Source: Clostridia bacterium
GTDB lineage: Bacteria; Bacillota; Clostridia; Peptostreptococcales; Anaerovoracaceae
Assembly (NCBI GenBank): GCA_024403115.1
Contig: JAKSSL010000003.1
Span: 8,031-72,030, forward strand
DNA: 64,000 bases
Direction of reading: 5' to 3'
The translations under genes and the position numbers were made by a program. The notes below the pieces were generated by a model. That model was not told the origin of the DNA. It searched no databases and saw nothing but the letters and a program-made list of their open reading frames with translations. Every line of letters starts with the position of its first letter. Position 1 is the stretch's first letter. Positions 11,020-47,855 of this stretch are shown here, piece by piece.

Positions 11020-11038
11020 TAGAAAGGCGATAGTATTA

Positions 11039-12448
11039 ATGGAAAAATTATCAATGGACACTTTGGTAGCTTTATGTAAGAACAGGGGCTTTGTATATCC
11101 TGGCTCAGAAATCTACGGAGGTCTTGCAAACACATGGGATTTCGGTCCTTTGGGAGTGGAATTCAAAAACAATATTAAGAAGGCTTGGTGGAAGAAATTC
11201 GTTCAAGAATCCAAGTACAATGTAGGCCTTGATGCAGCAATATTGATGAACCCTAGAACATGGGAAGCTTCAGGTCACTTGGGCAACTTCGCAGACCCTC
11301 TAATTGACTGCAAGGCTTGTAAATCAAGATTTAGAGCTGACAAGTTGATCGATGATTATCATGCTGAACAAGGCATTGAAGGCGTAATCGTTGACGGTTG
11401 GTCAAACAGCGAATTGGAAAACTACATAGCTGAAAAAGGAATCAAATGTCCTGAATGTGGAAAAGCTGATTTTACAGGAATTAGACAGTTTAACTTGATG
11501 TTCAAGACTTTCCAAGGAGTAACTGAGGATTCAAAAGCAGAAATCTATCTTAGACCAGAAACTGCTCAAGGCATCTTCGTAAACTTCAAGAATGTTCAAA
11601 GAACAACAAGAAAGAAGATTCCTTTTGGCATTGCTCAAATAGGAAAATCTTTCAGAAATGAAATTACTCCAGGTAACTTCATTTTCAGAGTTCGTGAATT
11701 TGAACAAATGGAATTGGAATTCTTCTGTGAACCAGGAACTGAATTAGAATGGTTCAAATATTGGAAGGACTATGCAAAGAATTTCTTGCTAGCTCTTAAC
11801 ATGAGAGAAGATCATTTCAGATTGAGAGATCACGAACAAAAGGAACTTTCCCACTACAGTAATGCTACTACTGATATTGAATATTTATTCCCATTTGGTT
11901 GGGGAGAACTATGGGGCGTTGCTTCAAGAACTAATTTCGACTTGAGCAAGCACCAAGAATTCTCAGGCCAAGACATGAGCTATAAATACAAAGATGAGGA
12001 AGTTGATCAAGATTTCATTCCATATGTAATCGAGCCATCACTAGGTGTTGAAAGACTTACTTTAGCTTTCCTTTCAGATGCGTACACATTTGAAGAATGG
12101 ACTAATGAAAGTGGAAAAGCTGACAGCAGAGTTGTAATGAAGTTCCATCCAGCTCTTGCGCCATTTAAGGCAGCAGTTCTTCCTCTTAACAAGAAGAAAC
12201 TGGGTGCTAAGGCTGAAGAAATCCATGCTGAACTTTCAAAGTACTTCATGGTTGATTATGATGAAACAGGCTCAATCGGAAAGAGATACAGAAGAGAAGA
12301 CGAAATTGGTACACCATTCTGCATCTGCGTTGACTTCGATACAGAGGTAGATAATTGCGTAACTATTCGTGATAGAGACACAATGGAACAAGTACGTATT
12401 CCAATTTCTGAAGTTAAAAACTACATTGAAGAAAGACTAGAATTTTAA
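11039..12448 (+). CDS. glyQS: Glycine--tRNA ligase (homodimeric class II GlyQS type)
   Basis: N-terminus [32 protein letters not shown] and the class II motifs. ATG 11039 is preferred, because the track start 10988 overlaps the upstream gene. Confidence 0.93.
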
Positions 12449-32760: not shown

Positions 32761-35160
32761 ATGAACGAAAAAGCATTAAAGATTTTAGAATACAATAAAA
32801 TAATTGAGATGCTTGTTTCCTATGCCAGCTGTAATATGGCAAAAGAAAGCCTTGAAAAGCTACAGCCTGGCACTGATTTGGATGAAATAAAGGACTCACT
32901 AAGGTCGACCTCAGAAGGGGTTGGCCTTATTGTGCGTAAAGGTCCACTGCCACTAGGCAATTTGTATGATATACATCAAAGCCTAGGCTTTGCCGCAAAA
33001 GGCGGTAGTTTGAACATGGGACAGCTGATGCATGTGGGGTATAATATGCGGGTTGCTTCCCAAGTGAAGAACTTTTTAAACAATGATGACTTTGATATTG
33101 ATTTCCCAATTATCAAAGCTTACTTGGAAGTAATTGAAGAAATGCCAAAACTGTCTGAAAGAATTGAGAAATCAATTATTTCAGAGGATGAAATGAGCGA
33201 TAATGCTTCAGGAGAATTAAGAAGCATACGCCGTGAGATGGCAAGACAAAACGATGAAATCAAGGCAAAGCTTAATAAGATAATAAGCTCTGGTGATAAG
33301 AAATCGGTATTGAGAGATTCTCTTGTAACAATGAGAGACGGTCGTTATGTAATTCCTGTAAAGCAGGAACAAAGATCTAATTTCCCAGGAATAATACATG
33401 ATCAATCATCCAGTGGTGCAACTCTGTTTATTGAACCACAGGTCATAGTTGATTTAAATAACAGACTTAGGGAATTGGAGCTGGAAGAACAGGCGGAAAT
33501 TGCTAGAATCCTAAAGGAGCTTTCAGAGAGAGTTGCTGAATATCATAAGCAGCTTGACAATAATCAAAAGCTTTTGACAGAGCTTGATATTATTATGGCA
33601 AAAGCTAAGCTTTCCCTGGCAATGGACGGAGAAGAAGCTGAAATTTATGAGGATGGAGAGCTAGTACTAAATACTGCAAGACATCCTTTGATTGATAAAA
33701 AAACAGTGGTTCCAATAGACATTTCTGTTGGAGGCGATTACAGAACTTTGGTGATTACAGGGCCTAACACAGGTGGTAAGACAGTAAGCTTAAAGACTGT
33801 TGGCCTTCTATGTCTTATGGCTCAAAGCGGACTTCACATTCCGGCAGCTTCAACGAGCAAATTACCAATATTTGAAAAAATCTTTGCTGATATAGGAGAT
33901 GAACAGAGCATAGAACAAAGCTTATCCACTTTCTCATCTCATATGAAAACAATAGTAAAGATTACTAGATATGCCAACGAAAAATCCCTTATTCTAGTTG
34001 ATGAGCTGGGCGCTGGAACAGATCCAACAGAAGGTGCGGCTTTGGCTATTTCAATATTGGAGAACTTCTATGAAAAGGGAGCATATACTTTGGCTACAAC
34101 TCACTATAACGAGCTTAAGAAATATGCTATATCCACAGAGGGAATAGAAAACGCTTCCATGGAGTTTGATGTGGAAAGTCTTAGTCCTACATACAGATTG
34201 ATTGTAGGTCTTGCTGGAAAATCAAATGCTTTTGAGATTTCCAAGAAATTGGGCTTGGATAAGAAGATAATAGAAAACTCAAAGACAAGAATAGAAACAG
34301 GGGACATGGAATTTGAAGATGTCCTTTCCTCAATAGAACAAGACAAACATGAAGCGGAAAAGGCTCTTGCAGAGGCTAATGTAATAAAGGCTGAGATGGA
34401 AAGAATGGAGCAAGAGTTCCTTAAGAAGCAAAAGCGTCTTGAAAGAGATGAAAAGAAGATCTTGGATGAAGCTCGAGATAAGGCAAAGAGTATAATCCAA
34501 GATGCAGAGGAAACTTCCAAAGAGGTAAAGGAAGAACTTAAGAATCTTGCAATGCGTGATTCCTTAGGGGAAAGAACAAAGGGCTTTGATGAAAGCCGTA
34601 AGAAGCTTAAGGAAGCAAAGCAAAAATATAGCGAAGGATTACAAGAGGAAGCTATAGAGGGTGAAGCAGTCAATGAAGATACCCTTCAAATAGGCGACAG
34701 AGTAAGATTAATTGATATGAATCAAATTGGTGAAGTAATAAGCCTTGCTGATTCAAAGGGAAGATTAAGTGTTAAACTTGGTCTGATGAAGGTTAATACT
34801 CAAATTGATAATCTACTTATGGTGGAAAGCGGAGCTAAAGCGAAAGCTTTAAAAGAGGCTAAGAAGCAGGCTTCCAAAGCCACATATGGAAAGCTATACA
34901 AGGACAAGACCATGCATTTTTCAACAAGCATTAATGTGCAAGGAGAGAACTTGGAAGATGCTTTGGCCAAGGTTGACAAGTATTTGGATGATGCTTTTAT
35001 CTCCAATGTCCACGAGGTTACCATTATACATGGACGAGGAGAAGGAATACTTAAGAGTGGCATTCGTGCCATGTTAAAGAAGAACAAACATGTTGCCTCC
35101 TTCAGAGCTGGTGAAATCAGCGAGGGCGGAGACGGAGTTACGGTGGTGAAATTCAAATGA
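32761..35160 (+). CDS. mutS2: Endonuclease MutS2 (MutS-family ATPase with a C-terminal Smr domain)
   Basis: Walker A ITGPNTGGKTV, DELG.GTDP, long coiled coil, Smr domain (IIHGRGEGILK). Confidence 0.94.
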   Translation: MNEKALKILEYNKIIEMLVSYASCNMAKESLEKLQPGTDLDEIKDSLRSTSEGVGLIVRKGPLPLGNLYDIHQSLGFAAKGGSLNMGQLMHVGYNMRVASQVKNFLNNDDFDIDFPIIKAYLEVIEEMPKLSERIEKSIISEDEMSDNASGELRSIRREMARQNDEIKAKLNKIISSGDKKSVLRDSLVTMRDGRYVIPVKQEQRSNFPGIIHDQSSSGATLFIEPQVIVDLNNRLRELELEEQAEIARILKELSERVAEYHKQLDNNQKLLTELDIIMAKAKLSLAMDGEEAEIYEDGELVLNTARHPLIDKKTVVPIDISVGGDYRTLVITGPNTGGKTVSLKTVGLLCLMAQSGLHIPAASTSKLPIFEKIFADIGDEQSIEQSLSTFSSHMKTIVKITRYANEKSLILVDELGAGTDPTEGAALAISILENFYEKGAYTLATTHYNELKKYAISTEGIENASMEFDVESLSPTYRLIVGLAGKSNAFEISKKLGLDKKIIENSKTRIETGDMEFEDVLSSIEQDKHEAEKALAEANVIKAEMERMEQEFLKKQKRLERDEKKILDEARDKAKSIIQDAEETSKEVKEELKNLAMRDSLGERTKGFDESRKKLKEAKQKYSEGLQEEAIEGEAVNEDTLQIGDRVRLIDMNQIGEVISLADSKGRLSVKLGLMKVNTQIDNLLMVESGAKAKALKEAKKQASKATYGKLYKDKTMHFSTSINVQGENLEDALAKVDKYLDDAFISNVHEVTIIHGRGEGILKSGIRAMLKKNKHVASFRAGEISEGGDGVTVVKFK

Positions 35161-35588
35161 TAGTTGTAAGCAAGTGTTTATTTGGATATAACTGTAAATA
35201 CAATGGCGGTAATAATGACAACGATGAGGTCAAGAAATACTGTGAGGGCAAGGATGTAATTCTAGTATGCCCTGAGCAGGCTGGCGATTTGCCAACACCT
35301 AGAGTCCCATCAGAGATTCAGCCTGATGGTCGTGTCTTATCCCGTGATGGTCAAGACCTTAGCGAAGAGTTTTCTCTGGGAGTTCAAAGGGAAATCTCCA
35401 GGGTTTTGGGCGAGAATAAAGCCATTGAAGAGGCAATACTAAAAGCCAACAGCCCATCCTGTGGCGTAGGTCAAGTCTATGACGGGACTTTTACAGGAAA
35501 GCTGGTCCCAGGCAATGGTAAATTCGCTGAAGAGCTTATGAAGTATTGCTCAAAGATATATACTGAAAAGGAGTTAAATAATGATTAA
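35157..35588 (+). CDS. DUF523 family protein (TudS-like putative Fe-S desulfurase)
   Basis: SKCL.G.NC.Y.G.....CPE..G.LPTPR....I pattern typical of DUF523. Overlaps both neighbours. Confidence 0.75.
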   Translation: MIVVSKCLFGYNCKYNGGNNDNDEVKKYCEGKDVILVCPEQAGDLPTPRVPSEIQPDGRVLSRDGQDLSEEFSLGVQREISRVLGENKAIEEAILKANSPSCGVGQVYDGTFTGKLVPGNGKFAEELMKYCSKIYTEKELNND

Positions 35589-37287
35589 CTATAAACAGGA
35601 AATTGCAAAAATTCTAGATGATAAACTAGTTGATCTAAGTTTAGAAGAAATTGAAAATATGTTGGAGATTCCAGCAGATTCAAAGATGGGAGACTTCGCT
35701 TTCCCTTGCTTTAAGCTGGCTAGAACTCTTAGAAAGGCTCCGCCTCTAATTGCAAAGGATATTGTAGCTCAATTGGAGGGCAATGCTTTGTTTGAAAAGG
35801 TTGAAGCTGTTAATGCCTACGTTAATATGTTTATTTCGAAGGAGATGCTTTTAAAGAATACTGTTGAAAGCACTTTTGAAATGGGCGCTGACTTTGGTAA
35901 AAGCCAAATTGGAGAAGGCAAAACTGTAGTAATAGACTACTCATCTCCTAATATTGCTAAGCCTTTCCACATAGGTCATATTAGATCCACAGTAATTGGA
36001 AATGCTTTATACAAAATCTATGATGCTTTGGGCTATGATGTTGTAAGAATCAATCACCTTGGGGATTACGGCACACAATTCGGTAAGATGATCTGCGCAT
36101 ATAGAAAATGGGGCAATAAGGAAGATGTTGAAAGAGAGCCAATTAAGACTTTGCTTTCATACTATACAAAGTTCCATGAAGAGGCTGAAAAAGATCCAAG
36201 CTTAGATGATGAGGCTAGAGATATTTTTGCAGCTCTTGAAAATGGTGCCAAGGAAGAAGTGGCTCTATGGCAATGGTTTAGAGATGAGTCTTTAAAAGAA
36301 TTCAATCGCGTATATGAAATGCTTGATATTAGTTTTGACTCATACAATGGAGAATCATTCTATTCAGACAAGATGCCAGCAGTTATTCAAGAGTTAAGGG
36401 ATAAGGCTTTGCTTGTACCTTCACAAGGCACAGAAATAGTTGAGCTTGAGCAATTCGGTTTAACAGATGCGCCTATAGTAAAAGCAAATGGTTCATCACT
36501 TTACATCACTCGTGATATAGCCGCTGCAATATATAGAAAAAACACTTACGATTTCTACAAGGATATCTATGTAGTTGCATCACAACAAAATCTTCACTTC
36601 CAACAACTTAAGAAGATTATTGAATTGATGGGTTACGATTGGGCAGACAAGATTGAACACGTACCTTTCGGCCTAGTATCTTTGGAAGAGGGAACTATGT
36701 CAACAAGACATGGCAGAGTAGTCTTCTTGGAAGATGTGCTTAATCATGCGGTAGACAAGACTCGTGAAATCATTAAGGACAAGGGTGTTGTAACAGAAAA
36801 CATCGATGAGACAGCTGCAATGGTTGGAATTGGTGCTGTTGTCTTCAACGAGCTTTCAAATAACAGAATAAAGGATTACGTTTTCTCCTATGACAAGGTT
36901 TTGAATTTTGATGGAGAGACAGGCCCATATGTTCAATACACTCACGCAAGAGCTCTTAGCGTTCTAAGAAAAGCTGGAGTTGAAGATATTGACCTTTCAA
37001 AGATTGATTACTCATATCTAAAAGGCGAGGCTGCAACAAATCTTGCTATGGATATATACAAGCTTCCAGAAGTAATAGTTGAGGCCGCTTCAAAGAATGA
37101 GCCATCAGTTGTTACACGCCACGTTGTAGACTTGGCACAAAGCTTTAACAAATTCTATCATGACGAACATATTTTGGTAGAAAATGAAGATGAAAAGCTA
37201 GCAAAACTTGCTTTAGTAAAAGCTGGACAAATTGCCATTAAAAATGGTTTAAATATTCTAGGTGTAAAAGCACCTGAAAAAATGTAG
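35581..37287 (+). CDS. argS: Arginine--tRNA ligase
   Basis: Class I signature SSPNIAKPFHIGHIRS, an MSTR(H)G KMSKS-like motif, and a DALR anticodon-binding C-terminus. Confidence 0.95.
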   Translation: MINYKQEIAKILDDKLVDLSLEEIENMLEIPADSKMGDFAFPCFKLARTLRKAPPLIAKDIVAQLEGNALFEKVEAVNAYVNMFISKEMLLKNTVESTFEMGADFGKSQIGEGKTVVIDYSSPNIAKPFHIGHIRSTVIGNALYKIYDALGYDVVRINHLGDYGTQFGKMICAYRKWGNKEDVEREPIKTLLSYYTKFHEEAEKDPSLDDEARDIFAALENGAKEEVALWQWFRDESLKEFNRVYEMLDISFDSYNGESFYSDKMPAVIQELRDKALLVPSQGTEIVELEQFGLTDAPIVKANGSSLYITRDIAAAIYRKNTYDFYKDIYVVASQQNLHFQQLKKIIELMGYDWADKIEHVPFGLVSLEEGTMSTRHGRVVFLEDVLNHAVDKTREIIKDKGVVTENIDETAAMVGIGAVVFNELSNNRIKDYVFSYDKVLNFDGETGPYVQYTHARALSVLRKAGVEDIDLSKIDYSYLKGEAATNLAMDIYKLPEVIVEAASKNEPSVVTRHVVDLAQSFNKFYHDEHILVENEDEKLAKLALVKAGQIAIKNGLNILGVKAPEKM

Positions 37288-37297
37288 GGGAATAAAT

Positions 37298-38677
37298 ATG
37301 TTGAGATTTTATATAGCCCTTTGGGCTGCGAAGTTATTTTACTTCATTAACAAGTTAATAGGCAGAGCAAGGGACGACAGACCCGGTTTGCTCGCTTTCA
37401 AAATATGCCCTGATTTCCTAGCGAGAATTGGCAAGCCAAAGCTGATGATTACAATCACAGGAACAAATGGTAAGACTACCACTTCGGCTTTGATCAACTC
37501 ATATTTGAAGGAACAAGGCCTAAGAGTTAGCTTTAATGATTGGGGTGCAAATTTACACGCTGGTTACTGCTTGAATTTAATGCGTTGCGTTAATATTTTC
37601 AACAAGGTGACTAAGATGGATGCCAGCGTTCTTGAGGCAGACGAGAAAACTTTGGCTCATACTATGGGTATGATTAAACCTCACTATGTGTTGGTTACAA
37701 ACATTTCAAAGGATTCTCTTCGCAGAAACGGCCATCCTGAATACATCTTCGACTGTGTAGAAAAATGCTTTGAAAAGCTGGGAGCAGACACTACAGCTAT
37801 TCTAAATGCCAACGATCCTATTTCTTCAGAGCTTGCAAGAAATACAGGTGCAAAGAGAGTCTTCTATGGCATGGACGACATAGGCTCCAATCCTTTTGAA
37901 AACATGGTCAAAGATATAGCTGTTTGCCCTAGATGCGGCGGAGAGCTTAAATACAATTACAGACAATATAGACATATAGGTGATTATTATTGCGCAGACT
38001 GTGATTTTAAGACCAAAGATGCAAAGTTCTATGCTACAAAAGTGGATTTAAAAGCTAGAACTATGGACATATTAGAAGACGGCGAGACTACTACTTATCC
38101 ACTTATTTCTGAAACTATTTTCAACGCTTTTAATGTATTATCAGCGGCAGCCGCTTTAAGAACTATGGGTTATGAGAAGGCTTCTCTGGCTGAGTTCTTT
38201 GAAAGACAAAAGGTAACAGAAATAAGAGAAACATGTGTAAAATACAAGGGCAAGGAGTTCCACACTTATGGAGCTAAGAGCCAAAATGTTTCGGCGGCAA
38301 GTACAGTATTTGAATATATGGCTAAGGAAAAGTCAGATAAAATCGTGGTACTTTGTATGGATGAAGTTCAAGACAAAAACCATCCAACAGAGACTTTAAC
38401 ATGGCTTTATGAAACTGATTTCGAATTCCTGAACAGCCCTAATATTAAACAAATTGTCGTTGCAGGTCACATGTACTTAAACCACAGGCTTCGCTTAATG
38501 CTTGCAGGAGTTGATCCAAATAAGATTGCGGCTTGTGAAGATGAGAGCAAGGTGGCTGACTTAGTTGATTTCAGCCAAGATTTCGAAAAGCTGTATGTTT
38601 TATTCGAGATCGACTATGTTACTAAGGGAAGAAACTGGCGTGATGCCATTGTTGAAAAAGCAAAGGAGGTAATGTAA
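37298..38677 (+). CDS. MurT-like Mur-ligase-family protein, paralog 1 (central ligase domain + Cys4 zinc ribbon + DUF1727-type C-terminus)
   Basis: P-loop GTNGKTTTS, LEADEKT, ILNANDP, zinc ribbon CPRCGG..(17)..CADC. No MurC-F N-terminal UDP-binding domain. The N-terminal helix resembles staphylococcal MurT. Followed by a GatD-like gene with a TAATG overlap. Confidence 0.8.
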   Translation: MLRFYIALWAAKLFYFINKLIGRARDDRPGLLAFKICPDFLARIGKPKLMITITGTNGKTTTSALINSYLKEQGLRVSFNDWGANLHAGYCLNLMRCVNIFNKVTKMDASVLEADEKTLAHTMGMIKPHYVLVTNISKDSLRRNGHPEYIFDCVEKCFEKLGADTTAILNANDPISSELARNTGAKRVFYGMDDIGSNPFENMVKDIAVCPRCGGELKYNYRQYRHIGDYYCADCDFKTKDAKFYATKVDLKARTMDILEDGETTTYPLISETIFNAFNVLSAAAALRTMGYEKASLAEFFERQKVTEIRETCVKYKGKEFHTYGAKSQNVSAASTVFEYMAKEKSDKIVVLCMDEVQDKNHPTETLTWLYETDFEFLNSPNIKQIVVAGHMYLNHRLRLMLAGVDPNKIAACEDESKVADLVDFSQDFEKLYVLFEIDYVTKGRNWRDAIVEKAKEVM

Positions 38678-39399
38678 TGAAAGTGGTAGAAAACTTATTT
38701 CCTGAGCTTTGCAATATATACGGAGAAAGCTACAGCGTTGAATATCTAAGCAGATGCAATGGAGATATCAAGCTGGTTCAAACCAATCACAAAGACGTTC
38801 CTGCCTTTGTTACAGAGGATGTGGATATGGTTTATCTAGGTTGCAGCTCCGAGAGAAAACAGGAACAAATTATTGAGATTTTAAAACCTTACAAGGCAAG
38901 AATTAAGGAATTAATTGACAAAGGAACTATATTCCTTGCAACAGGAAATGCCATTGAGGTTTTTGGTAAAAGTATTAAGGATGAGGATCGTGTTATTGAA
39001 GCTTTAGGCTTATTTGAATTTGATTCGGTAAGATATATGGAAGCTGAAAGACACAATTCTCAATATGTTGGAAGTTTTAAGGCAGACAATGGACCAATAA
39101 CAATGTTGGGACATAGAAGCCAATTCAGTTTCGCATATGGTGATTTTGAAAACTTCCCACATTGGTTGGACATTGAAATTGGTATAGGTATGAATAAGGA
39201 GACAAAGAGAGAAGGCATACACTACAACAACTTCTTTGCCACATATTCACTAGGACCATGTCTAATCATGAATCCGCTTTTCGCAAAATATCTATTAAGA
39301 TTAATGGATATAGATGATAGTCTATTATTTGAAAATGAGATTATGGAAGCTTATGAATACAGAAAACACGAGCTTCGTGAAAATCTAGCAAATAGCTAA
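38677..39399 (+). CDS. GatD-like CobB/CobQ-type glutamine amidotransferase-fold protein, paralog 1, without the catalytic Cys/His
   Basis: Aligns by eye to GatD through LATGNAIEVFG (canonical ..ICGGYQ.LG) and REGIHYNNFFATYSLGP (canonical EGIHY..L.GTYLHGP). The nucleophile Cys and the His are both absent. Confidence 0.75.
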   Translation: MKVVENLFPELCNIYGESYSVEYLSRCNGDIKLVQTNHKDVPAFVTEDVDMVYLGCSSERKQEQIIEILKPYKARIKELIDKGTIFLATGNAIEVFGKSIKDEDRVIEALGLFEFDSVRYMEAERHNSQYVGSFKADNGPITMLGHRSQFSFAYGDFENFPHWLDIEIGIGMNKETKREGIHYNNFFATYSLGPCLIMNPLFAKYLLRLMDIDDSLLFENEIMEAYEYRKHELRENLANS

Positions 39400-39461
39400 A
39401 TTCACAAAAACAACATATTTTCATGGTAGAATAAATAAAAAATTGTCAGAAAGGAGGGCAC

Positions 39462-40205
39462 ATGGTTAGAAAAACTAAGATACTTATGGCGTTAATCGCA
39501 GCGCTTTTAGTAGTAATTGCAGTGATTTCTATACTGTTTATTGACACTAAAAACCTATTAGAAGAAGCGCAAGCGGCAAATGCGGCATACGCTAAAACTG
39601 CGGTTAAAACTCAAAAGAAAATTGAGAAAAAGCAGGCTAAAATCGATGACGTTAAAGATAACTTGGACACTGTAAAGGACAAGAATAAGGACCTTAAGAG
39701 TGAAGTTAAGTCTTTGAAAAAAGCCAATGCTAGATTAGAAAAACAAATTGGAAAAGCAAAGGATGCTCAATATAAAGCCGAAGTTGAATTAAAAAAATAC
39801 AAGCAGAGGAAGAGTAAAATCGACAATGTAATTAACCTCGCAAAAAGTAAGCTTGGCTGCAGATATGTTCACGGCCGTTGTGGCCCATACTATTTTGACT
39901 GTCAAGGCTTCGCATGGTATGTATACCACAATACTGTAGGCTGTATTACAACTGGAGGCTGTCATAAACAATTCAATTCTGTTTCCTATGGTTATGTTTC
40001 GAATAATTTAAGTGATGCCAAAAGAGGAGATTTAATATATTTCCTTAAAGGCAGTTATTATTCTCATGTAGCCCTATATATTGGAGGCGGAAAGATTATT
40101 CACGCAACTACTGGTGGCGGATATCATAGGGTTGTAATTACTTCAATTCCTAGATCATGGGCATCATCATTTAAGGTAGTAAGGCCGATTCCAAATGTAA
40201 AATAA
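39462..40205 (+). CDS. Membrane-anchored coiled-coil NlpC/P60 family cell-wall endopeptidase
   Basis: N-terminal TM helix, about 100-aa Lys/Glu-rich coiled coil, C-terminal NlpC/P60 domain with catalytic Cys (YFDCQGF) and His (YSHVALYIGGGKIIHA). Confidence 0.85.
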   Translation: MVRKTKILMALIAALLVVIAVISILFIDTKNLLEEAQAANAAYAKTAVKTQKKIEKKQAKIDDVKDNLDTVKDKNKDLKSEVKSLKKANARLEKQIGKAKDAQYKAEVELKKYKQRKSKIDNVINLAKSKLGCRYVHGRCGPYYFDCQGFAWYVYHNTVGCITTGGCHKQFNSVSYGYVSNNLSDAKRGDLIYFLKGSYYSHVALYIGGGKIIHATTGGGYHRVVITSIPRSWASSFKVVRPIPNVK

Positions 40206-40215
40206 TGGAGATAAA

Positions 40216-41217
40216 ATGACAAAATTAACTTTTATATTAAGAAAATTAACAGATACAAATTATAAGGCAATTTTTAAAACAGCTTCAGATATTGCAAAGA
40301 TTACAGGCAAGAGCAAATTAGCTATTTTAAAGGATATGGCTGATTGCACTGCCAAATATGGTTCAGGCTACGTTGATTACAAAGACTTTAGAATGTACGA
40401 ATTAAGCCCTGAAAAGAGAGCTGAAATTCTTACAATCACAAAGAACAACGAATTGGTCAGAACTTTGAATCAAGCGGAATACAGAGACTTTTTCGAGGAT
40501 AAAGAAAAATTCAACAGAAAGTTCTCCAAGTATCTTCACAGAGAGTGGATGATAATAAATGGAGAAAACTTTGAGGAGTTTAAGGCTTTCGTAGACGGCA
40601 AGCCAGCCGTTATTGTAAAACCTTTGGGCCTATCATGTGGTAAGGGTATTGAAAAGGTTTACCCTGATCAAGAGAAGGACCTTAAGGCAACTTACGACGA
40701 GCTTTATGCTCACAACTGTATATTAGTTGAAGAGCTTGCAAAGCAATGCGACGAAATGAGCGCTTTCTGCACAACTTCAATCAATACAGTTAGATTGGTA
40801 TCAGTAATCACAAATTCTGGAGAGCCTAAGCTTTGCGCTGGCGTATTTAGAATGGGTAGAGAAGGTGCATATGTAGATAATTTCAATCACGGTGGCATAG
40901 GCGCTAATGTTGATGTTTGGAAAGGCGAAACAGCAACAGACGGCTATGACAAGGATAGAAACATCTACGAGTACACTCCAGTAACAAATCAAAAGCTTAA
41001 AGGCTTCAAAATTCCTCAATGGGAAGCTTGCGAAGCTATGGTTAAGGAAGCCGCAATGGTTGTTCCTCAAGTAAGATATGTTGCATGGGATGTTTGCATA
41101 GCTCCAGAGGGCCCATTGCTAATCGAAGGAAACAGTTATCCAGGCCAAGATTTGTCTCAATATCCTGAGTTGGGACTTGGAACTTACAAAGCGATTACAG
41201 ATGTTTTAAACAGTTGA
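40216..41217 (+). CDS. ATP-grasp ligase, 'sugar-transfer associated' (ATPgrasp_ST-like) family
   Basis: VIVKPLGLSCGKGI, VEE, NFNHGGIGANVD and WDVCIAPEGPLLIEGN match the ATP-grasp core of the alpha-L-glutamate-ligase-related group. Confidence 0.7.
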   Translation: MTKLTFILRKLTDTNYKAIFKTASDIAKITGKSKLAILKDMADCTAKYGSGYVDYKDFRMYELSPEKRAEILTITKNNELVRTLNQAEYRDFFEDKEKFNRKFSKYLHREWMIINGENFEEFKAFVDGKPAVIVKPLGLSCGKGIEKVYPDQEKDLKATYDELYAHNCILVEELAKQCDEMSAFCTTSINTVRLVSVITNSGEPKLCAGVFRMGREGAYVDNFNHGGIGANVDVWKGETATDGYDKDRNIYEYTPVTNQKLKGFKIPQWEACEAMVKEAAMVVPQVRYVAWDVCIAPEGPLLIEGNSYPGQDLSQYPELGLGTYKAITDVLNS

Positions 41218-41226
41218 TTTATAGGA

Positions 41227-41257
41227 AAGGACAAGCTTTAGACTTGTCCTTTTTTTA
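41227..41257 (+). terminator. Rho-independent terminator after the ATP-grasp gene
   Basis: AAGGACAAG-CTTTAGA-CTTGTCCTT hairpin followed by TTTTTT. Confidence 0.8.
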
Positions 41258-41277
41258 TGTGAATTTTAGGGCTTTTG

Positions 41278-41286
41278 TGGTATAAT
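41278..41286 (+). promoter_or_regulatory. Extended -10 promoter element (TGGTATAAT) for the second MurT-like/GatD-like module
   Basis: TG-N-TATAAT at 41278-41286, about 33 nt upstream of ATG 41319. Confidence 0.5.
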
Positions 41287-41318
41287 TACTATGTATAGAT
41301 ATGAATAGGAGAATGACT

Positions 41319-42695
41319 ATGGGAAAGTTAAAATTTCTTGTAGCACACTGGGCTGCAAAGGCCTCAGTTGTAGCTTTAAAAATCACAAAACACAACGGAA
41401 CAAATTTTCCAGGAGAGCTTGCAATCAAGATCTGTCCTGACTTTTTGAAATACATAGATAAGCCTGAAACTATTATTGGAGTAACAGGAACAAACGGTAA
41501 GACTACTGTATGTAATTTGCTAATTGATATGTTCACTGCTGATGGCCAGGTGCCACTTAATAACAGAGCAGGTTCCAATATTAATTCGGGCATTGCAACA
41601 AGTCTAATTCACGGAGCTAATCTATTTGGAAAATGCAAGCACAACCTAGGAGTTTTGGAAATAGATGAAAGATCAGCTTTGAGGGTATTCCCTTATGTAA
41701 AGCCAAACTACTTGATCATTACAAACCTGTTTAGAGATTCCATGAAGCGTAATGCTAACACAGAATATATTGCTGACATTTTAAGCAAATACATTCCTAA
41801 GGAGACTAAATTAGTTCTAAATGCAGATGATTTAATCTCATCAAATGTTGCACCAGAAAACCCAAGAGTATATTTTGGAATCGATAAGATGGATAGTGAC
41901 ATAAAGGAATGCACAAACCTAATCAATGATATTAGAATTTGCCCAGTATGCCATAGCAAATTGGAGTATGAGTATTTGAGATATCACCACATTGGAAAAG
42001 CACATTGCGTTTCCTGTGACTTTAAATCTCCAGGATATGACTACTGTGCAAAGAATGTAAATATAGATGATATGACCATGGAAATAGTTGATAAGGACGG
42101 TCTAGGTAACTACCGACTAATCAGCAATGGCATTCATAATATTTATAATATGGTAACTGTTATTGCACTGTTCAGAGAGCTTGGATACAAGCACGGCATT
42201 ATAGAAAAGTTAATGAGCCAAACTTCTATAGTAAAGAGCAGATATAATGCAGTACCAGCAGGCAAGGTAAGAGTAATAAATCAAATGGCCAAGGAAAACA
42301 ATGCCCTTGGATCATCGAGAGCTTTTGACTTCGTGTCCAAGGAACCTAACGACAAGGAATTGATTTTGATGATGAACTGTCTAGGTGATGAGAAACACTG
42401 GTCAGAAAATACTTGCTGGCTATATGACTGCGACTTTGAATTTCTAAACGACGAAAAGATTAAGAAGATAATTGTTACAGGACCTAGATATAAGGACTAT
42501 ATCCTGAGACTTTTAATAGCTGGAGTTGATAGAGCAAAAATCGTGGACACTGCTCATGAAATTGATGCACCAGATTTGCTGGACTTCACTCCTGGGGAAG
42601 ATATTTATGTCTTCTTTGGAACAGATTCCCTGGCTCTTGGAAACAAGGTCCTTGCCAAAACAATTGACTTGGCAAAAGAAAGGGGTGATAAGTAA
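41319..42695 (+). CDS. MurT-like Mur-ligase-family protein, paralog 2
   Basis: GTNGKTTVC, LEIDERS, FRDSMKR (MurT has FRDQMDR), VLNADDL, zinc ribbon CPVCHS..(17)..CVSC, DUF1727-type C-terminus. ATG 41319 follows TAGGAGA; the track start is 41301. Confidence 0.8.
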   Translation: MGKLKFLVAHWAAKASVVALKITKHNGTNFPGELAIKICPDFLKYIDKPETIIGVTGTNGKTTVCNLLIDMFTADGQVPLNNRAGSNINSGIATSLIHGANLFGKCKHNLGVLEIDERSALRVFPYVKPNYLIITNLFRDSMKRNANTEYIADILSKYIPKETKLVLNADDLISSNVAPENPRVYFGIDKMDSDIKECTNLINDIRICPVCHSKLEYEYLRYHHIGKAHCVSCDFKSPGYDYCAKNVNIDDMTMEIVDKDGLGNYRLISNGIHNIYNMVTVIALFRELGYKHGIIEKLMSQTSIVKSRYNAVPAGKVRVINQMAKENNALGSSRAFDFVSKEPNDKELILMMNCLGDEKHWSENTCWLYDCDFEFLNDEKIKKIIVTGPRYKDYILRLLIAGVDRAKIVDTAHEIDAPDLLDFTPGEDIYVFFGTDSLALGNKVLAKTIDLAKERGDK

Positions 42696-43432
42696 TGAAA
42701 ATTGAAGTATTATTCCCTGAGATTTGCAATCTTTTTGGAGAACTAGCAAACATTAGATATTTGGAATCCAGCTTAAAGGAAAGCGGTGAGTTTTACGAAA
42801 TTACATACACTTCCTTGAAGGATGAACCTTTATTTGCCAGTGAAAAACCGGATTTAATCTACATGGGCGGAATGTCTGAGCATTCTCAAAGCCTTGTTGT
42901 AGACAAGCTTATGCCATATAGAGACAGAATTATTGACTTAATTAAGGACGACACGAATTTCCTTATCACATCAAATGCTTTGGAAATTTTCGGAGAAAGA
43001 ATCGAGTTTTGCGATGCTGACTACGAGGATATTAAAGGCCTTAGCATCTTCCCAACTGTAGCAAAGAATCAAATGTATAAAAGATTCAATTGCCTGTATT
43101 TGGGCAAGCTAGGTGATATGGAAATAGTAGGCTTTAAAAGCCAATTCGGTCATAGTTATTTGAATGGAGACAAGAACTATGAGGACCTATTTGAAACAAT
43201 AAAGGGAACAGGATTAAACCCTGAATATAAAAACGAGGGGATAAAGGTTAATGGCTTCTTGGCAACTTATGTTGTTGGACCTATCTTGGTGCTAAATCCT
43301 GATTTTACAAAGGCTTTAATGAAGAGGATGGGCGTAGGAGAACCAAAGCTGGCTTATGAAGAGGCAGCATACGAAAGCTACAATCAAAGGCTTAATGAAT
43401 ACAAGGAAGAAAATAGAGGCTTCTATTATTAG
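42695..43432 (+). CDS. GatD-like CobB/CobQ-type amidotransferase-fold protein, paralog 2, without the catalytic Cys/His
   Basis: LITSNALEIFG in place of the Cys elbow, and NEGIKVNGFLATYVVGP in place of the ..GTYLHGP His motif. TAATG overlap with the upstream ligase. Confidence 0.75.
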   Translation: MKIEVLFPEICNLFGELANIRYLESSLKESGEFYEITYTSLKDEPLFASEKPDLIYMGGMSEHSQSLVVDKLMPYRDRIIDLIKDDTNFLITSNALEIFGERIEFCDADYEDIKGLSIFPTVAKNQMYKRFNCLYLGKLGDMEIVGFKSQFGHSYLNGDKNYEDLFETIKGTGLNPEYKNEGIKVNGFLATYVVGPILVLNPDFTKALMKRMGVGEPKLAYEEAAYESYNQRLNEYKEENRGFYY

Positions 43433-43441
43433 GAGGAAACT

Positions 43442-44368
43442 ATGGGAAAGATAGTTGTATTTGGAAGTTTGAATATGGATATGAGCATTCGCTCTAACAG
43501 AATGCCTTTAGTGGGCGAGACAATATCTGGAAGCGACTTTATTCAAAACCCTGGTGGAAAGGGTGCAAACCAAGCTATGGCAGCTGCCAAGATGGGAGCA
43601 AAAACAGTAATGCTAGGTTCAGTAGGTGCAGCTCAAACAGGCATGGGTCCTGACAGCAATGGGGTGGCTTTACTAACATCCTTGAAAAAAGCAGGAGTAG
43701 ACACTAGCAGAGTAAAGACTGTTGATGGGCTAGCCACTTCAGTTGCAATAATAGTAAATGCCAATGGCAACAATGCTATTGTAATAGATTCAGAGGCAAA
43801 CTGTTCAAAGGACGTTAACACAATAATTGAAGAACTGGATGGATTAATCCAAGAGGGCGATATACTTATTACACAGAACGAATGTGATATGAACGCCTGC
43901 TATGAAGCCATTAAGTTCGCTAAGGAAAAGGGTGCAATTACAATGCATAATCCTGCACCGGCTTTAAAACCGGGAAAAGATGTTATTCCTTTCATAGATT
44001 ATTTGGTCTTAAACGAGTTGGAATGCCAAACTATTACTGGCATTTTGCCTTATGATGAATATAGCACTAAGGATGCTATTGTGGCGCTTTTGGACATGGG
44101 ATTTAAACATCCAATTATTACTTTAGGTGCCAAGGGAAGCGCAGCTATCAGCAACAAAATTGTTTTTACCATAGATGCATATCCAGTTGAAGTGGTTGAT
44201 ACTACTGCAGCAGGAGATACATATATAGGAGCTTTGGCGACTCAGCTTTTGGAAGAAAAGGACCTATATGAGGCTATGGAATTTGCTTCAAAAGCGGCTA
44301 GTTTAGCAACAACAAAGAGAGGTGCTCAAAGCGCAATACCTACAAGGGAGGAAGTAGAAAATGAGTAA
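43442..44368 (+). CDS. rbsK: Ribokinase
   Basis: PfkB family: GS.N.D, GGKGANQA, C-terminal DTT.AGD and ATTKRGAQ.S.P. Confidence 0.88.
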   Translation: MGKIVVFGSLNMDMSIRSNRMPLVGETISGSDFIQNPGGKGANQAMAAAKMGAKTVMLGSVGAAQTGMGPDSNGVALLTSLKKAGVDTSRVKTVDGLATSVAIIVNANGNNAIVIDSEANCSKDVNTIIEELDGLIQEGDILITQNECDMNACYEAIKFAKEKGAITMHNPAPALKPGKDVIPFIDYLVLNELECQTITGILPYDEYSTKDAIVALLDMGFKHPIITLGAKGSAAISNKIVFTIDAYPVEVVDTTAAGDTYIGALATQLLEEKDLYEAMEFASKAASLATTKRGAQSAIPTREEVENE

Positions 44369-45287
44369 ATTACCAATTATGATAGATACAGATCCTGGAA
44401 TAGATGATGCAGCAGCATTAGCCATTGCTCTGTTCCACCCTGATTTGGATGTAAAGCTAATAACAACAGTTGCAGGTAATGTAAGCATTGAAAAGACAAC
44501 TGCTAACGCATTGAAACTTATTGAAATGTTCGGTAAAGATGTGCCTATTGCACGTGGTTGCGAACATCCATTAGTATATGATTTAGATGATGGAAGCGAA
44601 GTTCATGGAATAACAGGTATGGATGGCTGGGTATTCCCAGAACCTGACTATTCAAGATTGATGAAGGAACATGCAGTTATTGCTATGCGTGATTTGCTTA
44701 TGGAGAGCCCTGAAGAAATCACTTTGGTAGCTATTGGACCTCTTACAAATGTGGGAATGTTGTTCAGACTTTTCCCTGAGGTTAAAGCTAAGATTAATGA
44801 AATAGTTTTGATGGGCGGTTCTGTTACTCGTGGCAACAAGACACCTACAGGAGAGTTTAACATTTATTCTGACCCTGAGGCTGCTCACATTGTATTCACA
44901 AGCGGTTTACCTATTCGCATGGTTGGTTTAGATGTTGGCTGGAAATCCTTCGTTGATGGTAAACATATGGATATGCTACCTGAGATAAACAAGGTCTGCG
45001 AAATGTTGGAAGCTACTTTCAGACATTACAGAAGCAATCAGTTTGAAAAGGGCATTGTTAATATGTATGACAGCGATGCTATTGCAGCTTTAGTAAAGCC
45101 AGAAATGTTCAAATGGGTTAATACGCATTTAGATGTAGAATTGGAAGGCAAATACGGACGTGGCCAAACAGTATGCGATTTAGATGAGCGCTATGGAAAA
45201 GCACATAATGTTACAGTCGCAGTTGATGTTAGCACTAAGGTTTTCCAAGATTGGTTTATTGAATCATTAAAGAATTGTAATATATAA
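44361..45287 (+). CDS. Nucleoside hydrolase (IUNH family)
   Basis: N-terminal fingerprint IDTDPGIDDAAAL and a conserved HD-type core. Confidence 0.88.
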   Translation: MSKLPIMIDTDPGIDDAAALAIALFHPDLDVKLITTVAGNVSIEKTTANALKLIEMFGKDVPIARGCEHPLVYDLDDGSEVHGITGMDGWVFPEPDYSRLMKEHAVIAMRDLLMESPEEITLVAIGPLTNVGMLFRLFPEVKAKINEIVLMGGSVTRGNKTPTGEFNIYSDPEAAHIVFTSGLPIRMVGLDVGWKSFVDGKHMDMLPEINKVCEMLEATFRHYRSNQFEKGIVNMYDSDAIAALVKPEMFKWVNTHLDVELEGKYGRGQTVCDLDERYGKAHNVTVAVDVSTKVFQDWFIESLKNCNI

Positions 45288-45288
45288 A

Positions 45289-45960
45289 ATGAAAATTGTT
45301 GTAATCAGTGGCAGCTCTTCTGGTCTTGGAAAAGAGCTGGCAAAACAACTTAATAAGCTGGGATATTTCATAGTGGGAATAGGAAGAGACGAGCTTAAAC
45401 TAAAGGAAACCTCCAAGGACTTGGACGATAATTACAAGTACTTTGCGGGAGACATTTCCGATGAAGCTTTTGTTAATTCTACCATAGACGAAATATATGA
45501 AATGGGACCGGTTCACTCAATTATAAACAATGCGAGCATAGGCGTGTTCAAAGCCCCTAAAGACATTAATTTGGAAGATATAGAGCTTTCAGAGAAGGGA
45601 ACTAAGGGCATGATGCTTCTTAGCGCTGCCGCTCTTCGCAAGTCTGAGGATATAAGGATAATTAATATTCTATCTACGGCTAGCAACAAGGGTAAAGCCA
45701 TGGAGTCCGCTTACTGTATGTCAAAATTTGCTCAAAAAGGATATACGGAAAGTTTGAAAGCCTATTACGAAAATGGACCAGCCCAAGTGAGCGGTGTTTA
45801 CTTAGGTGGAATGAATACCCACCTATATGATAATTCGAGAGACTATATCAGCGAGGAAAAGCAGAAATCCTTTATGGATCCAGCGGATATAGGAAGAAGG
45901 ATTGTTGAGCAGTATTTTGTGAAAGGAGAGTTTTGCGACATTGAAATTAAACGACATTAA
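45289..45960 (+). CDS. Short-chain dehydrogenase/reductase (SDR), short form
   Basis: SGSSSGLG cofactor loop, NNAS, catalytic Y..SK (AYCMSK). Confidence 0.75.
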
Positions 45961-46603
45961 TAGATACATGGATCATACTCTTTTAAAGCCTGATGCCACT
46001 CCAGAGCAAATAAGACAGCTTTGTGAAGAGGCTATTAAGTACGACTTTTATTCCGTTTGTGTTAACTCTTCTTATGTATCACTAGCTGAGGCATATTTAG
46101 ATGGAAGCGATGTTGAGATAGCATGCGTTGTTGGCTTCCCTTTGGGAGCTATGACCAGCGAAGCCAAGGGCTTTGAAACAATAGATGCCATAGAACATGG
46201 TGCCAATGAAATTGATATGGTAATAAACGTGGGCCGTTTAAAAGCGGGGGATACGGACTATGTCCAAAACGATATAGCCATGGTATGCCAGCTTGCTCAC
46301 GATAGAAATGCTTTAGTAAAAGTAATTATTGAAACCTGCCTTCTAAGCGATGAGGAAAAGGAATTGGCTTGCAAGCTTGCAGTAAAAGCAGGAGCTGATT
46401 ACCTTAAGACATCCACTGGTTTTGCAGGTGGCGGTGCTACTGTGGAAGACGTAGCTTTAATGAAAAAAGCTGTTGGAGACCATGTGGGAGTTAAAGCCTC
46501 AGGCGGCATTAGAGATTATGAAACTGCAGTTAAAATGATTGAAGCAGGAGCTACTCGTTTGGGAACAAGCGCTTCTGTAAATATAATAAAAGAATTAGAT
46601 TAA
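45941..46603 (+). CDS. deoC: Deoxyribose-phosphate aldolase
   Basis: DHTLLKP, the Schiff-base lysine context (DYLKTSTGF), and [12 protein letters not shown] start overlaps the SDR 3' end. Confidence 0.9.
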
Positions 46604-46613
46604 GGAGAATGAA

Positions 46614-47114
46614 ATGAGCTTATACAAAGAATGGGACAAATTAATGAGCAACCAAACAGACAAGACTATTGAAAAGTTTTGGGCTGAATATAGTGGAACA
46701 GAAACTAGAATTTATAAACATATACTTGAAAACCCTCAAGAAGCTTTTGAAGGAAAGTATAGCGATTTAGTTGAAAAGTTTGAGGCAGACCCAGTTATAT
46801 TCATGGGATTCTTAGACGGAATTCAAACTTCACTAAACAATCCTTTTGATTTAGAAAAGGTTAAAGAGGACAGCGATATTAAATTAGATATCGATTTCGA
46901 AAAGCTATATTTCAACATGTTCAAGGCTGACGCAGAGTATTTATATACTTTGGAAGCATGGGAAGGTGTTTTGAGCGAAGAAAAGAGAGCTGAAATCTAC
47001 AAGGACTTCAAGAGATCTAGAACTGTACACGTAGAGAAGACTCCTGGAAGAAATGATCCATGTCCATGTGGCAGCGGTTTAAAGTACAAGAAATGCTGTG
47101 GTAAAAACGCTTAG
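46614..47114 (+). CDS. SEC-C metal-binding motif protein
   Basis: C-terminal [19 protein letters not shown]. The rest is not assignable. Confidence 0.7.
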
Positions 47115-47129
47115 TTAAGTGGAGGACAT

Positions 47130-47855
47130 ATGAGACCGATATTAATTGAGGCTGCAATGGCTTCAGAACTATACTATTTAGTAGAAAAATTAAATGCTAA
47201 GGAAAAAACTATTAACAAAGTAAGTTTTTTTGAAACAGAGTTTGATGCTTATCCTATAGTTTTGATGAAAACAAAGGTGGGCGAAATTAACAGTGCAATT
47301 TCAAATACCGTTGCCATGATGACATATAATCCTTGCCTGATAATTAACATAGGAACAGGTGGTGGTTATGGTGAAGAGGCAAACGTGGGTGATATTGTTG
47401 TTGGAAAGTCCATAAGATATATTTCTCAATATGTCACATCAGGAGATATAGAGCCTGATTTCAATTGTTGGAAGAAGGATAAATTCGTATCATTGGATGG
47501 GGAAGAAGTATCATATAGCATATCTGATAAGCTTTTGAACTATTTAAAAGCTGAGCTTTTCAAGGACAAGAATGTGAAGTATGCTACCATCTGTAGCGGA
47601 GATATTTGGTCTAAGGATGAAGAAACTATCAGAAAGCATATTGAACTGTATGACGGTTTGTGTGAGGTAATGGAAGCTACAGGTGCACACTTTGCAGCGG
47701 ATAGCTTTAATTGCCCAGAATTCGCTTTGAGAATAGTATCCAACAATGAAATCAAGGGCCAACTATTTGAGGAACATTACGGACAAGATCTTCAGGAATT
47801 TGTTTATGATTTAATTCCAAAGCTTGTTTGCGATGCTAAGAAAGGTTTGTTTTAA
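47130..47855 (+). CDS. MTA/SAH-nucleosidase-like (PNP_UDP_1 family) nucleosidase with a variant active site
   Basis: AAMASE (compare GAMEEE), NIGTGGG, VGDIVVG, SGD and VMEATG align with MTAN. The R-x-I-S-D motif reads RIVSN. Confidence 0.7.
   Translation: MRPILIEAAMASELYYLVEKLNAKEKTINKVSFFETEFDAYPIVLMKTKVGEINSAISNTVAMMTYNPCLIINIGTGGGYGEEANVGDIVVGKSIRYISQYVTSGDIEPDFNCWKKDKFVSLDGEEVSYSISDKLLNYLKAELFKDKNVKYATICSGDIWSKDEETIRKHIELYDGLCEVMEATGAHFAADSFNCPEFALRIVSNNEIKGQLFEEHYGQDLQEFVYDLIPKLVCDAKKGLF

Follow-up and report, generated by a model that had tools for sequence, protein, structure and literature searches.

The lipid II isoglutaminyl synthase MurT/GatD is encoded in Staphylococcus aureus, Streptococcus pneumoniae, Streptococcus pyogenes and Mycobacterium tuberculosis by a two-gene unit in which the ligase gene comes first, and murTgatD has been called 'widespread in the Clostridiales' by Morlot et al. 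In the known structures, the glutaminase and ligase sites are joined only by a narrow ammonia path (PMC6085368). Exchange of Cys94 for Gly in S. aureus GatD abolishes glutamine-dependent amidation of lipid II and leaves NH3-dependent amidation at pH 8.5 unaffected; without its partner, MurT shows no activity whatever the donor (PMC3266927). The exchange C94S also abolishes, and MurT-D349N severely reduces, glutamine-dependent activity in S. aureus (PMC6113224). Here we describe a locus on contig JAKSSL010000003.1 of a Clostridia bacterium, at positions 37298-43432 of a stretch of 64,000 nt (the window), which carries two MurT-like/GatD-like pairs with the same ligase-first arrangement and with the glutaminase residues replaced in both GatD-like partners.

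All six open reading frames (ORFs) of the locus, each on the forward strand, were confirmed at the coordinates given here. MurT-like ligase 1 (459 aa, 37298-38677) matches Pfam Mur_ligase_M and MurT_C with 63 bits each and contains a Cys4 zinc ribbon; MurT-like ligase 2 (458 aa, 41319-42695) matches MurT_C with 81.5 bits and Mur_ligase_M with 40.6 bits. Their partners, the GatD-like pseudo-glutaminases 1 (240 aa, 38677-39399) and 2 (245 aa, 42695-43432), match Pfam GATase_3 with 35.7 and 36.2 bits, respectively, against a cut-off of 27 bits. An earlier note, made by reading the DNA alone, had proposed this architecture, a Mur ligase domain, a Cys4 ribbon and a DUF1727-type C-terminus followed by a GatD-like protein, and Pfam and the alignments below confirm it. 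Each GatD-like gene overlaps the MurT-like gene before it: both junctions read GTAATGAAA, with the one-base stop/start overlap TAATG described in that note. The two copies are 36% identical in their MurT-like and 37% in their GatD-like proteins, in keeping with the old duplication that had been supposed from about one third of shared residues.

Catalytic residues of the two pairs

Residues of the GatD-like proteins were assigned from HMMER alignments to the solved GatD proteins of S. aureus, S. pneumoniae and S. pyogenes. In GatD-like 1, Cys94 of the canonical enzyme (LTICGGYQ) is replaced by Gly90 (FLATGNAIE) and His189 (YLHGP) by Leu192 (TYSLGP), whereas GatD-like 2 has Ser (FLITSNALE) and Val (TYVVGP) at the same positions. 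The fold itself is kept. An AlphaFold2 (AF2) model of GatD-like 1, with a predicted local distance difference test (pLDDT) of 89, has S. aureus GatD as its best Foldseek match at a template-modelling (TM) score of 0.72-0.76, and Gly90 lies in this model at the strand-helix 'nucleophile elbow'. Loss of the glutaminase residues from both partners, noticed already in the first reading of the sequence, thus holds for copy 1 (Gly/Leu) as well as for copy 2 (Ser/Val).

The replacements extend over the whole family to which these proteins belong. Among 137 aligned sequences, taken from the 150 best-scoring representatives of clusters formed at 50% identity, not one has the Cys-His dyad, and all share the motifs [FL]LxTGN[AS]xE and [LIV]GP. 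Proper alignment, whether to the solved structures or across these representatives, therefore restores no dyad. In the numbering of GatD-like 1, position 90 (Cys94 equivalent) is Gly in 87% and Ser in 8% of the sequences, position 91 (Gly95 equivalent) is Asn in 90%, position 94 (Gln98 equivalent) is Glu or Asp in 97%, and position 192 (His189 equivalent) is Leu, Ile or Val. Other traits of canonical GatD are retained: an acidic residue at position 17, corresponding to Asp32 of S. pneumoniae (Asp/Glu, 97%), Gly at position 55, corresponding to S. aureus Gly59 (91%), and the Gly-Pro following His189 (positions 193-194, 98%). Arg at position 125 (93%) is probably the counterpart of Arg128, alignment gaps making the assignment ambiguous.

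We also considered whether the Ser of GatD-like 2 could serve as a substitute nucleophile. This candidate was rejected: orthologues of GatD-like 2 from other genomes have Gly there. No Cys, His or Ser is conserved at any position of the GatD-like family alignment.

In contrast to their partners, the MurT-like proteins have kept their active sites. Aligned with S. aureus MurT (7q8e/6gs2), MurT-like 1 scores 150 bits and MurT-like 2 scores 161 bits in HMMER. The former retains the GTNGKTT P-loop, the equivalent of the Mg site residue E108 and the CxxC...CxxC zinc ribbon, and the latter likewise keeps the P-loop, the E108 equivalent and the ribbon, so that both ligases look catalytically intact in these alignments, as had been thought. 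Conserved throughout the MurT-like family are K59, T60, E108, D110, E111, N130, D134, R138, the four cysteines, N264, R298 and K315, together with the acceptor-contacting G-[AS]-N motif (G-A-N in canonical MurT). The third residue of the catalytic triad, MurT Asp349, is not among them. It is Thr in MurT-like 1 (PTETLTW) and Asn in MurT-like 2 (WSENTCW), its column is not conserved in the family, and a conserved Glu is found instead one residue upstream of the old position (here too alignment gaps are ambiguous). The DNAAD motif and loop 135-143 of MurT are replaced by family-specific motifs.

Scores against NCBIfam equivalog models of MurT and GatD (NF052464/NF045635 and NF052463/NF045636) point in the same direction. 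Where the MurT models demand 800 bits, MurT-like 1 reaches 162 and the other MurT-like protein 185 at best; the GatD-like proteins attain at most 53 and 62 bits with models whose cut-offs are 400-450. With scores so far under the cut-offs, the proteins are best regarded as relatives of the characterised MurT/GatD enzyme and not as members of that family. The family described here lacks three defining features of MurT/GatD: the Cys-His dyad, Asp349 and an equivalog-level score.

C94G, C94S and D349N, as they occur in these natural proteins, are identical to published point mutations of the S. aureus enzyme. Because the glutaminase residues are lost from both partners, canonical glutamine-dependent amidation by this locus is unlikely, judging from the alignments; the earlier note had come to the same view, and the identity of the natural residues with glutamine-inactivating mutations strengthens it.

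Distribution and gene neighbourhood of the family

An exhaustive HMMER search of 1.84 billion cluster representatives (50%-identity clusters) with GatD-like 1 as a query returned 995 hits at E<=1e-3, 493 at E<=1e-10 and 125 at E<=1e-30. Family members score 117-246 bits with this query, canonical GatD only about 54. A scan of one genome per species with an alignment of 19 GatD-like sequences found relatives in at least 427 species genomes, mostly of uncultured gut and rumen Bacillota. The closest relatives come from Anaerovoracaceae, which puts the source of the window in this family. Among cultured bacteria, Baileyella intestinalis (71% identity), Lentihominibacter hominis and Brotomerdimonas butyrica are close carriers. 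Carriers at a greater distance are Oscillospiraceae, Acutalibacteraceae, the RF39 bacterium 'Mycoplasma sp. CAG:611', Fastidiosipila, Sporobacter termitidis DSM 10068 and one metagenome-assembled genome (MAG) of Propionibacteriaceae. Twenty diverse representatives are nearly all MAG proteins from Clostridia, Oscillospiraceae, Fastidiosipila and Bacilli. The carriers are gut, rumen and termite anaerobes, and these habitats are rich in ammonia.

By these searches the window locus is not a one-off and belongs to a large triad-less family. In a quick neighbour-joining distance tree, S. aureus MurT falls on a long branch outside the three family clades. The triad-less MurT/GatD-like proteins constitute a distinct, coherent sister family of MurT/GatD, and our literature searches found no description of a triad-less or paralogous MurT/GatD family.

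Gene neighbourhoods were compared in the best 80 of the 427 loci, a set outside which the distant carriers lie. Every GatD-like copy in these loci is likewise devoid of the dyad and has the same motifs. Wherever both genes are readable, the GatD-like gene stands directly 3' of the MurT-like gene, and among the cluster representatives there are natural single-chain fusions with the domain order Mur_ligase_M, MurT_C, GATase_3. Constant adjacency and occasional fusion speak for a physical complex of the two proteins.

Four such fusions (P0125, P0153, P0183 and P0232), of about 700-760 aa, join a MurT-like to a triad-less GatD-like protein, and could be handy for biochemistry or structure work.

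When all ORFs of the 80 loci were clustered, only MurT-like, GatD-like and ATPgrasp_ST proteins emerged as conserved neighbours; the other clusters reflect housekeeping synteny (miaB, cls, ftsY, gpsA, der, plsY, nth, smc, uppP, ftsK). Genes hinting at a nucleophile (for a racemase, a decarboxylase or amino-acid biosynthesis) were not found in the 80 loci. An ATPgrasp_ST gene adjoins the pairs in 38 of the loci; nearly all Anaerovoracaceae-like loci have one, as do two of three RF39 loci (L062, L064). The full order murT1-gatD1-ATPgrasp-murT2-gatD2 occurs in about a dozen loci and is recurrent in Anaerovoracaceae, and look-ups starting from the ATP-grasp protein met the same five-gene operon in two of three cases. 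The conserved unit is a MurT-GatD pair with or without ATPgrasp_ST and a second pair. Several paralogous pairs in some genomes and the association with an ATP-grasp ligase set the family apart from canonical MurT/GatD.

Most carriers have a single pair without ATP-grasp. Sporobacter termitidis and Oscillospiraceae bacterium CM each show a single pair, both with the order trmB-murT-gatD-ogg, which in strain CM lies near sepF, divIVA and ileS. In RF39, the pair of locus L064 directly follows a gene for a MurJ/Wzx-type flippase and stands between two ATPgrasp_ST genes, and locus L065 has a flippase and a GH3 hydrolase within about 8 kb of the pair.

Several individual loci show further variation. 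In L064 (5908-12673) and L062, from RF39 ('Mycoplasma sp. CAG:611' / Tenericutes UMGS1485), a compact row consists of ATPgrasp_ST, the MurJ/Wzx-type flippase, MurT-like, GatD-like, a 252-aa protein and a second ATPgrasp_ST. The 252-aa protein has no Pfam match and adjoins the pair in L065 as well (763-1539). In a rabbit-gut Oscillospiraceae MAG (L063, 6468-12874), at least three MurT-like genes and two for GatD-like proteins crowd into 7 kb; their neighbour is a 1254-aa protein that has both transglutaminase-like and SLH domains. A third, more distant triad-less pair, about 30% identical to the window pairs, adjoins the MurT1/GatD1 orthologues in L002 (6497-8567) and L015 (4897-6978), and the distance tree gives it a separate clade. 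Finally, the five-gene operon of L082 contains, following a MurT_C ligase, a GatD2-type protein (10373-11104) too diverged for any Pfam match; annotation based on profiles will therefore miss such members.

Companion genes and layout of the locus

Between the two pairs of the window lie an NlpC/P60 endopeptidase and an ATPgrasp_ST ligase, both already recognised at first reading and now supported by Pfam. The ATP-grasp protein (333 aa, 40216-41217) matches PF14397 with 160 bits against a gathering score of 31.4. Its ATP/Mg ligands K135, E172, D292, E304 and N306 are invariant among 59 homologues. A sequence search against solved structures gave no match. The AF2 model (pLDDT 94) has a RimK-like fold, with RimK as the nearest solved structure, followed by ATP-grasp peptide ligases, the D-Ala-D-Ala ligase Ddl and the glutathione synthetase GshB, at a TM score of about 0.49. 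Predicted fold and kept ATP/Mg ligands thus mark the protein as a probable ligase of the amino-acid or peptide type. Conserved ligands are shared with RimK, a poly-alpha-L-glutamate ligase, and with the ATP-grasp peptide ligases; the protein differs from RimK in that the fold similarity is only about 0.49, identity is 15-18%, the N-terminus carries a distinct extra helical domain of about 100 aa, and the Pfam family is ATPgrasp_ST.

The NlpC/P60 protein (39462-40205) is membrane-anchored and coiled-coil. Its domain scores 52.9 bits (Pfam NLPC_P60 cut-off 23), and in alignments the catalytic Cys, His and His of solved NlpC/P60 domains have their counterparts in its motifs FDCQGF, SHVALYIG and IIHA. 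In its N-terminal anchor, long coiled coil, C-terminal NlpC/P60 domain and intact Cys-His-His it resembles the D,L-endopeptidases of the CwlO/RipC type, although its best NCBIfam match, RipC, reaches 49 bits against a cut-off of 425 and its position inside a MurT/GatD operon is unique to its lineage. No NlpC/P60 homologue occurs within 10 kb of the pairs in the 80 related loci, the only case being this genome itself (the window and L001). The peptidase is a lineage-specific insertion into the operon, and its proposed role as a part of the ligation system was abandoned on account of this absence.

Downstream of the ATP-grasp gene, an intrinsic terminator (41223-41255) consists of a 13-bp hairpin with a 7-nt loop (dG -14.4 kcal/mol) followed by a U-run; its z-score is -4.06, and none of 200 shuffled sequences folds equally well. 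It separates the ATP-grasp gene from an extended -10 promoter element read from the sequence, TGgTATAAT (41278-41286), which precedes module 2, and from AGGAG at 41307-41311, 7 nt upstream of the ATG of MurT-like 2 at 41319. The division of the two modules by a terminator and an extended -10 element was part of the earlier note and has stood. In this genome, the five-gene unit is interrupted by the NlpC/P60 gene and by this terminator/promoter pair. A simple terminator scanner missed the hairpin, so the scanner's list is incomplete.

MurT-like 1 starts 10 nt past the argS stop codon. Upstream (32761-37298), mutS2, a DUF523 gene (2-thiouracil desulfurase family), argS and MurT-like 1 overlap or lie at most 10 nt apart; with such tight packing, module 1 appears to be co-transcribed with these housekeeping genes and to lack a promoter of its own. 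On the other side a gene for a PfkB kinase begins 10 nt past GatD-like 2. It opens a block of nucleoside catabolism and salvage genes (43442-47855), namely a PfkB (ribokinase-like) kinase, an inosine-uridine nucleoside hydrolase, a short-chain dehydrogenase, a DeoC aldolase, a SEC-C motif protein and a phosphorylase of the PNP/MTAP type, which seems to have no relation to the wall genes. A third MurT/GatD-like pair is absent from the 64-kb window, and an Rfam scan of the window revealed no riboswitch or other RNA element.

Possible reactions and their significance

On the reading that we favour, the locus encodes two glutaminase-dead heterodimers of the MurT/GatD type together with a RimK-like ATP-grasp ligase, as a variant of the recurrent five-gene unit. 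We have better than even confidence in the broader claim of a glutamine-independent modification of peptidoglycan-precursor carboxylates by MurT-type chemistry. The MurT-like subunit would phosphorylate a carboxylate of the lipid-linked stem peptide with ATP, ancestrally the alpha-carboxylate of D-iso-Glu, and the resulting acyl phosphate would then be coupled to a nitrogen nucleophile not derived from glutamine. The likeliest nucleophile is free ammonia, which would yield iso-glutamine; this version of the scheme has a probability of roughly 0.4. The second pair would amidate another carboxylate, such as the one on the diamino acid, and the ATP-grasp ligase would add an amino acid to the same precursor.

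Ammonia leads as a nucleophile because S. aureus GatD-C94G keeps its NH3-dependent activity. This mutant complex, described by Munch et al. in 2012, has the same Gly as GatD-like 1 and 87% of the family; it is glutaminase-dead, yet goes on using NH3 for lipid II amidation and remains dependent on GatD (PMC3266927). The natural family, known here from sequence, differs from the laboratory mutant, whose activity with NH3 is confined to pH 8.5, in that additional changes have become fixed in its pocket and interface. The inactivity of MurT without its partner would explain why a dead partner has been retained, and the suggestion of free ammonia with a scaffold-only partner, made when the sequence was first read, thereby acquires a direct experimental precedent. 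The remodelled GatD-like pocket may in addition capture NH4+ through Asn91, Glu/Asp94, the retained Asp/Glu17 and the MurT Glu beside the old Asp349 position.

A similar route has been taken elsewhere. Carbamoyl-phosphate synthetase I is ammonia-dependent and retains an inactive glutaminase-like domain in which Cys is replaced by Ser, the same switch from glutamine to ammonia with the class I glutaminase-like domain kept. Synthetase chemistry and substrate are unrelated, and the analogy concerns the evolutionary route only.

Gene context and habitat also speak for this reading: the pairs stand in a housekeeping setting, in the window tightly packed between argS and the PfkB kinase gene, a MurJ-type flippase adjoins the pair in RF39 genomes, and the carriers live where ammonia is plentiful. 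Several points weigh against our reading. In S. aureus, the enzyme worked with NH3 at pH 8.5 but not at pH 7.5 (PMC3266927). A single amidation does not account for two or three diverged pairs per genome and a co-conserved ATP-grasp of the peptide-ligase type. Moreover, strong purifying selection maintains a new set of residues in the old glutaminase pocket (Asn91 90%, Glu/Asp94 97%, Arg125 93%), of which a pure scaffold has no need. The DNAAD-type motif of MurT, thought to read residue 3 of the stem peptide, is replaced, and we found no published muropeptide data for any carrier.

Some of these observations speak for a second reading, in which the pairs attach an amino acid, a diamino acid or a polyamine to a stem-peptide carboxylate, in the first place the D-iso-Glu alpha-carboxyl. 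We give it a somewhat lower probability than the ammonia-based scheme, of which it is the main and a serious competitor. The pseudo-glutaminase would bind the nucleophile, and the pairs and the RimK-like ATP-grasp would work one after another, assembling a short branch or bridge, whose length on the lipid II stem peptide would be set by the number of pairs plus ATP-grasp. Two or three diverged pairs per genome count in favour of such a scheme, as does an ATP-grasp co-conserved in Anaerovoracaceae and the distant RF39, and all three ligases are of carboxylate-activating, amine-adding types, the ATP-grasp being closest to RimK and peptide ligases. The conservation of the old glutamine pocket with new acidic and polar residues, with Gly59 and probably the carboxylate-binding Arg128 kept, also fits, although conservation of the nucleophile elbow may be structural. 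The conserved MurT-like Glu near the old Asp349 would suit a protonated amine.

Substituents of the D-Glu alpha-carboxyl are known chemotypes: Gly, Gly-amide, D-Ala-amide, the diamino-acid bridges of B-type (2-4 cross-linked) walls, cadaverine and putrescine. We know of no ligase for any of them, and literature searches linking MurT to cadaverine or B-type walls returned nothing relevant. Among MurT-type ligases, archaeal MurT-like proteins without GatD have been proposed as pseudomurein peptide ligases and are thought to add an amino acid instead of ammonia (PMC11915815; pMurC, PDB 6vr7). The NCBIfam model pMurC (NF053645) is the next-best match of our proteins after MurT, yet only with 80-88 bits against a cut-off of 560, and the archaeal enzymes belong to another pathway and have no GatD partner. 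Against attachment of a larger amine stands the narrow ammonia path of known MurT/GatD structures (PMC6085368), in which a bulky nucleophile could reach the acyl phosphate only after rearrangement. Most carriers, furthermore, have a single pair and no ATP-grasp, and no known B-type or polyamine-wall taxon is among the named ones. Nor did we find a described wall chemotype for any carrier: the Baileyella description gives none, and no other carrier paper was found.

Still less probable is a target outside peptidoglycan, be it another lipid-linked glycopolymer, a secondary wall polymer with uronic or amino-acid carboxylates, or a free polyamide like cyanophycin or poly-gamma-glutamate. The ATPgrasp_ST Pfam family is defined by its association with sugar transfer and surface polysaccharides, the RF39 flippase beside the pair matches Polysacc_synt better than MurJ, and ATP-grasp plus a Mur-type ligase is the recipe of cyanophycin synthetase. 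But lipid II MurT and GatD are by far the best matches in both sequence and fold, no glycosyltransferase, polymerase or export genes are conserved beside the pairs in the 80 loci, and single pairs occur in a housekeeping and cell-division context. A split polyamide synthetase, raised in the earlier note, finds no support. The ligases are encoded by separate genes and score 15-41 bits with the cyanophycin synthetase (CphA) models NF010623/TIGR02068, far below the cut-offs of 850-877, and 19 bits with the PgsB/CapB model TIGR04012 (cut-off 222.7); neighbours resembling pgsC or pgsA are missing from the window and from the 80 loci, and the proteins are specifically MurT/GatD-like.

That the pairs are inert relics, or regulators or scaffolds of wall synthesis performing no ligation, is very improbable. 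Three residues needed for the canonical reaction are indeed gone, but this is a large family on which purifying selection acts (125 clusters at E<=1e-30, at least 427 species), the ligase ATP/Mg site, the zinc ribbon and the acceptor motif are conserved, translational coupling is kept, and many genomes have their single pair in a housekeeping context. A cryptic canonical synthase, drawing its nucleophile and base from other positions, can practically be dismissed in spite of the MurT/GatD fold and architecture, given that the GatD-like family has no conserved Cys, His or Ser, that the Ser of GatD-like 2 gives way to Gly in orthologues and that the same substitutions abolish or severely reduce glutamine-dependent activity in S. 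aureus (PMC3266927, PMC6113224).

The amidation or substitution state of D-iso-Glu governs how penicillin-binding proteins cross-link the wall, how sensitive it is to lysozyme and antibiotics, and how host NOD receptors recognise its muropeptides. In a large clade of gut and rumen Bacillota, this step or one related to it seems to proceed with no hydrolysis of glutamine. The cultured carriers Baileyella intestinalis, Lentihominibacter hominis, Brotomerdimonas butyrica and Sporobacter termitidis make the hypothesis directly testable. If an amine or amino acid proves to be the donor, a ligase for substitution of the stem-peptide alpha-carboxyl would be identified. If ammonia is the donor, the family would provide the first natural ammonia-dependent lipid II amidase, as far as the literature searched shows, and would exemplify clearly how a pseudo-glutaminase can persist as an obligatory partner.

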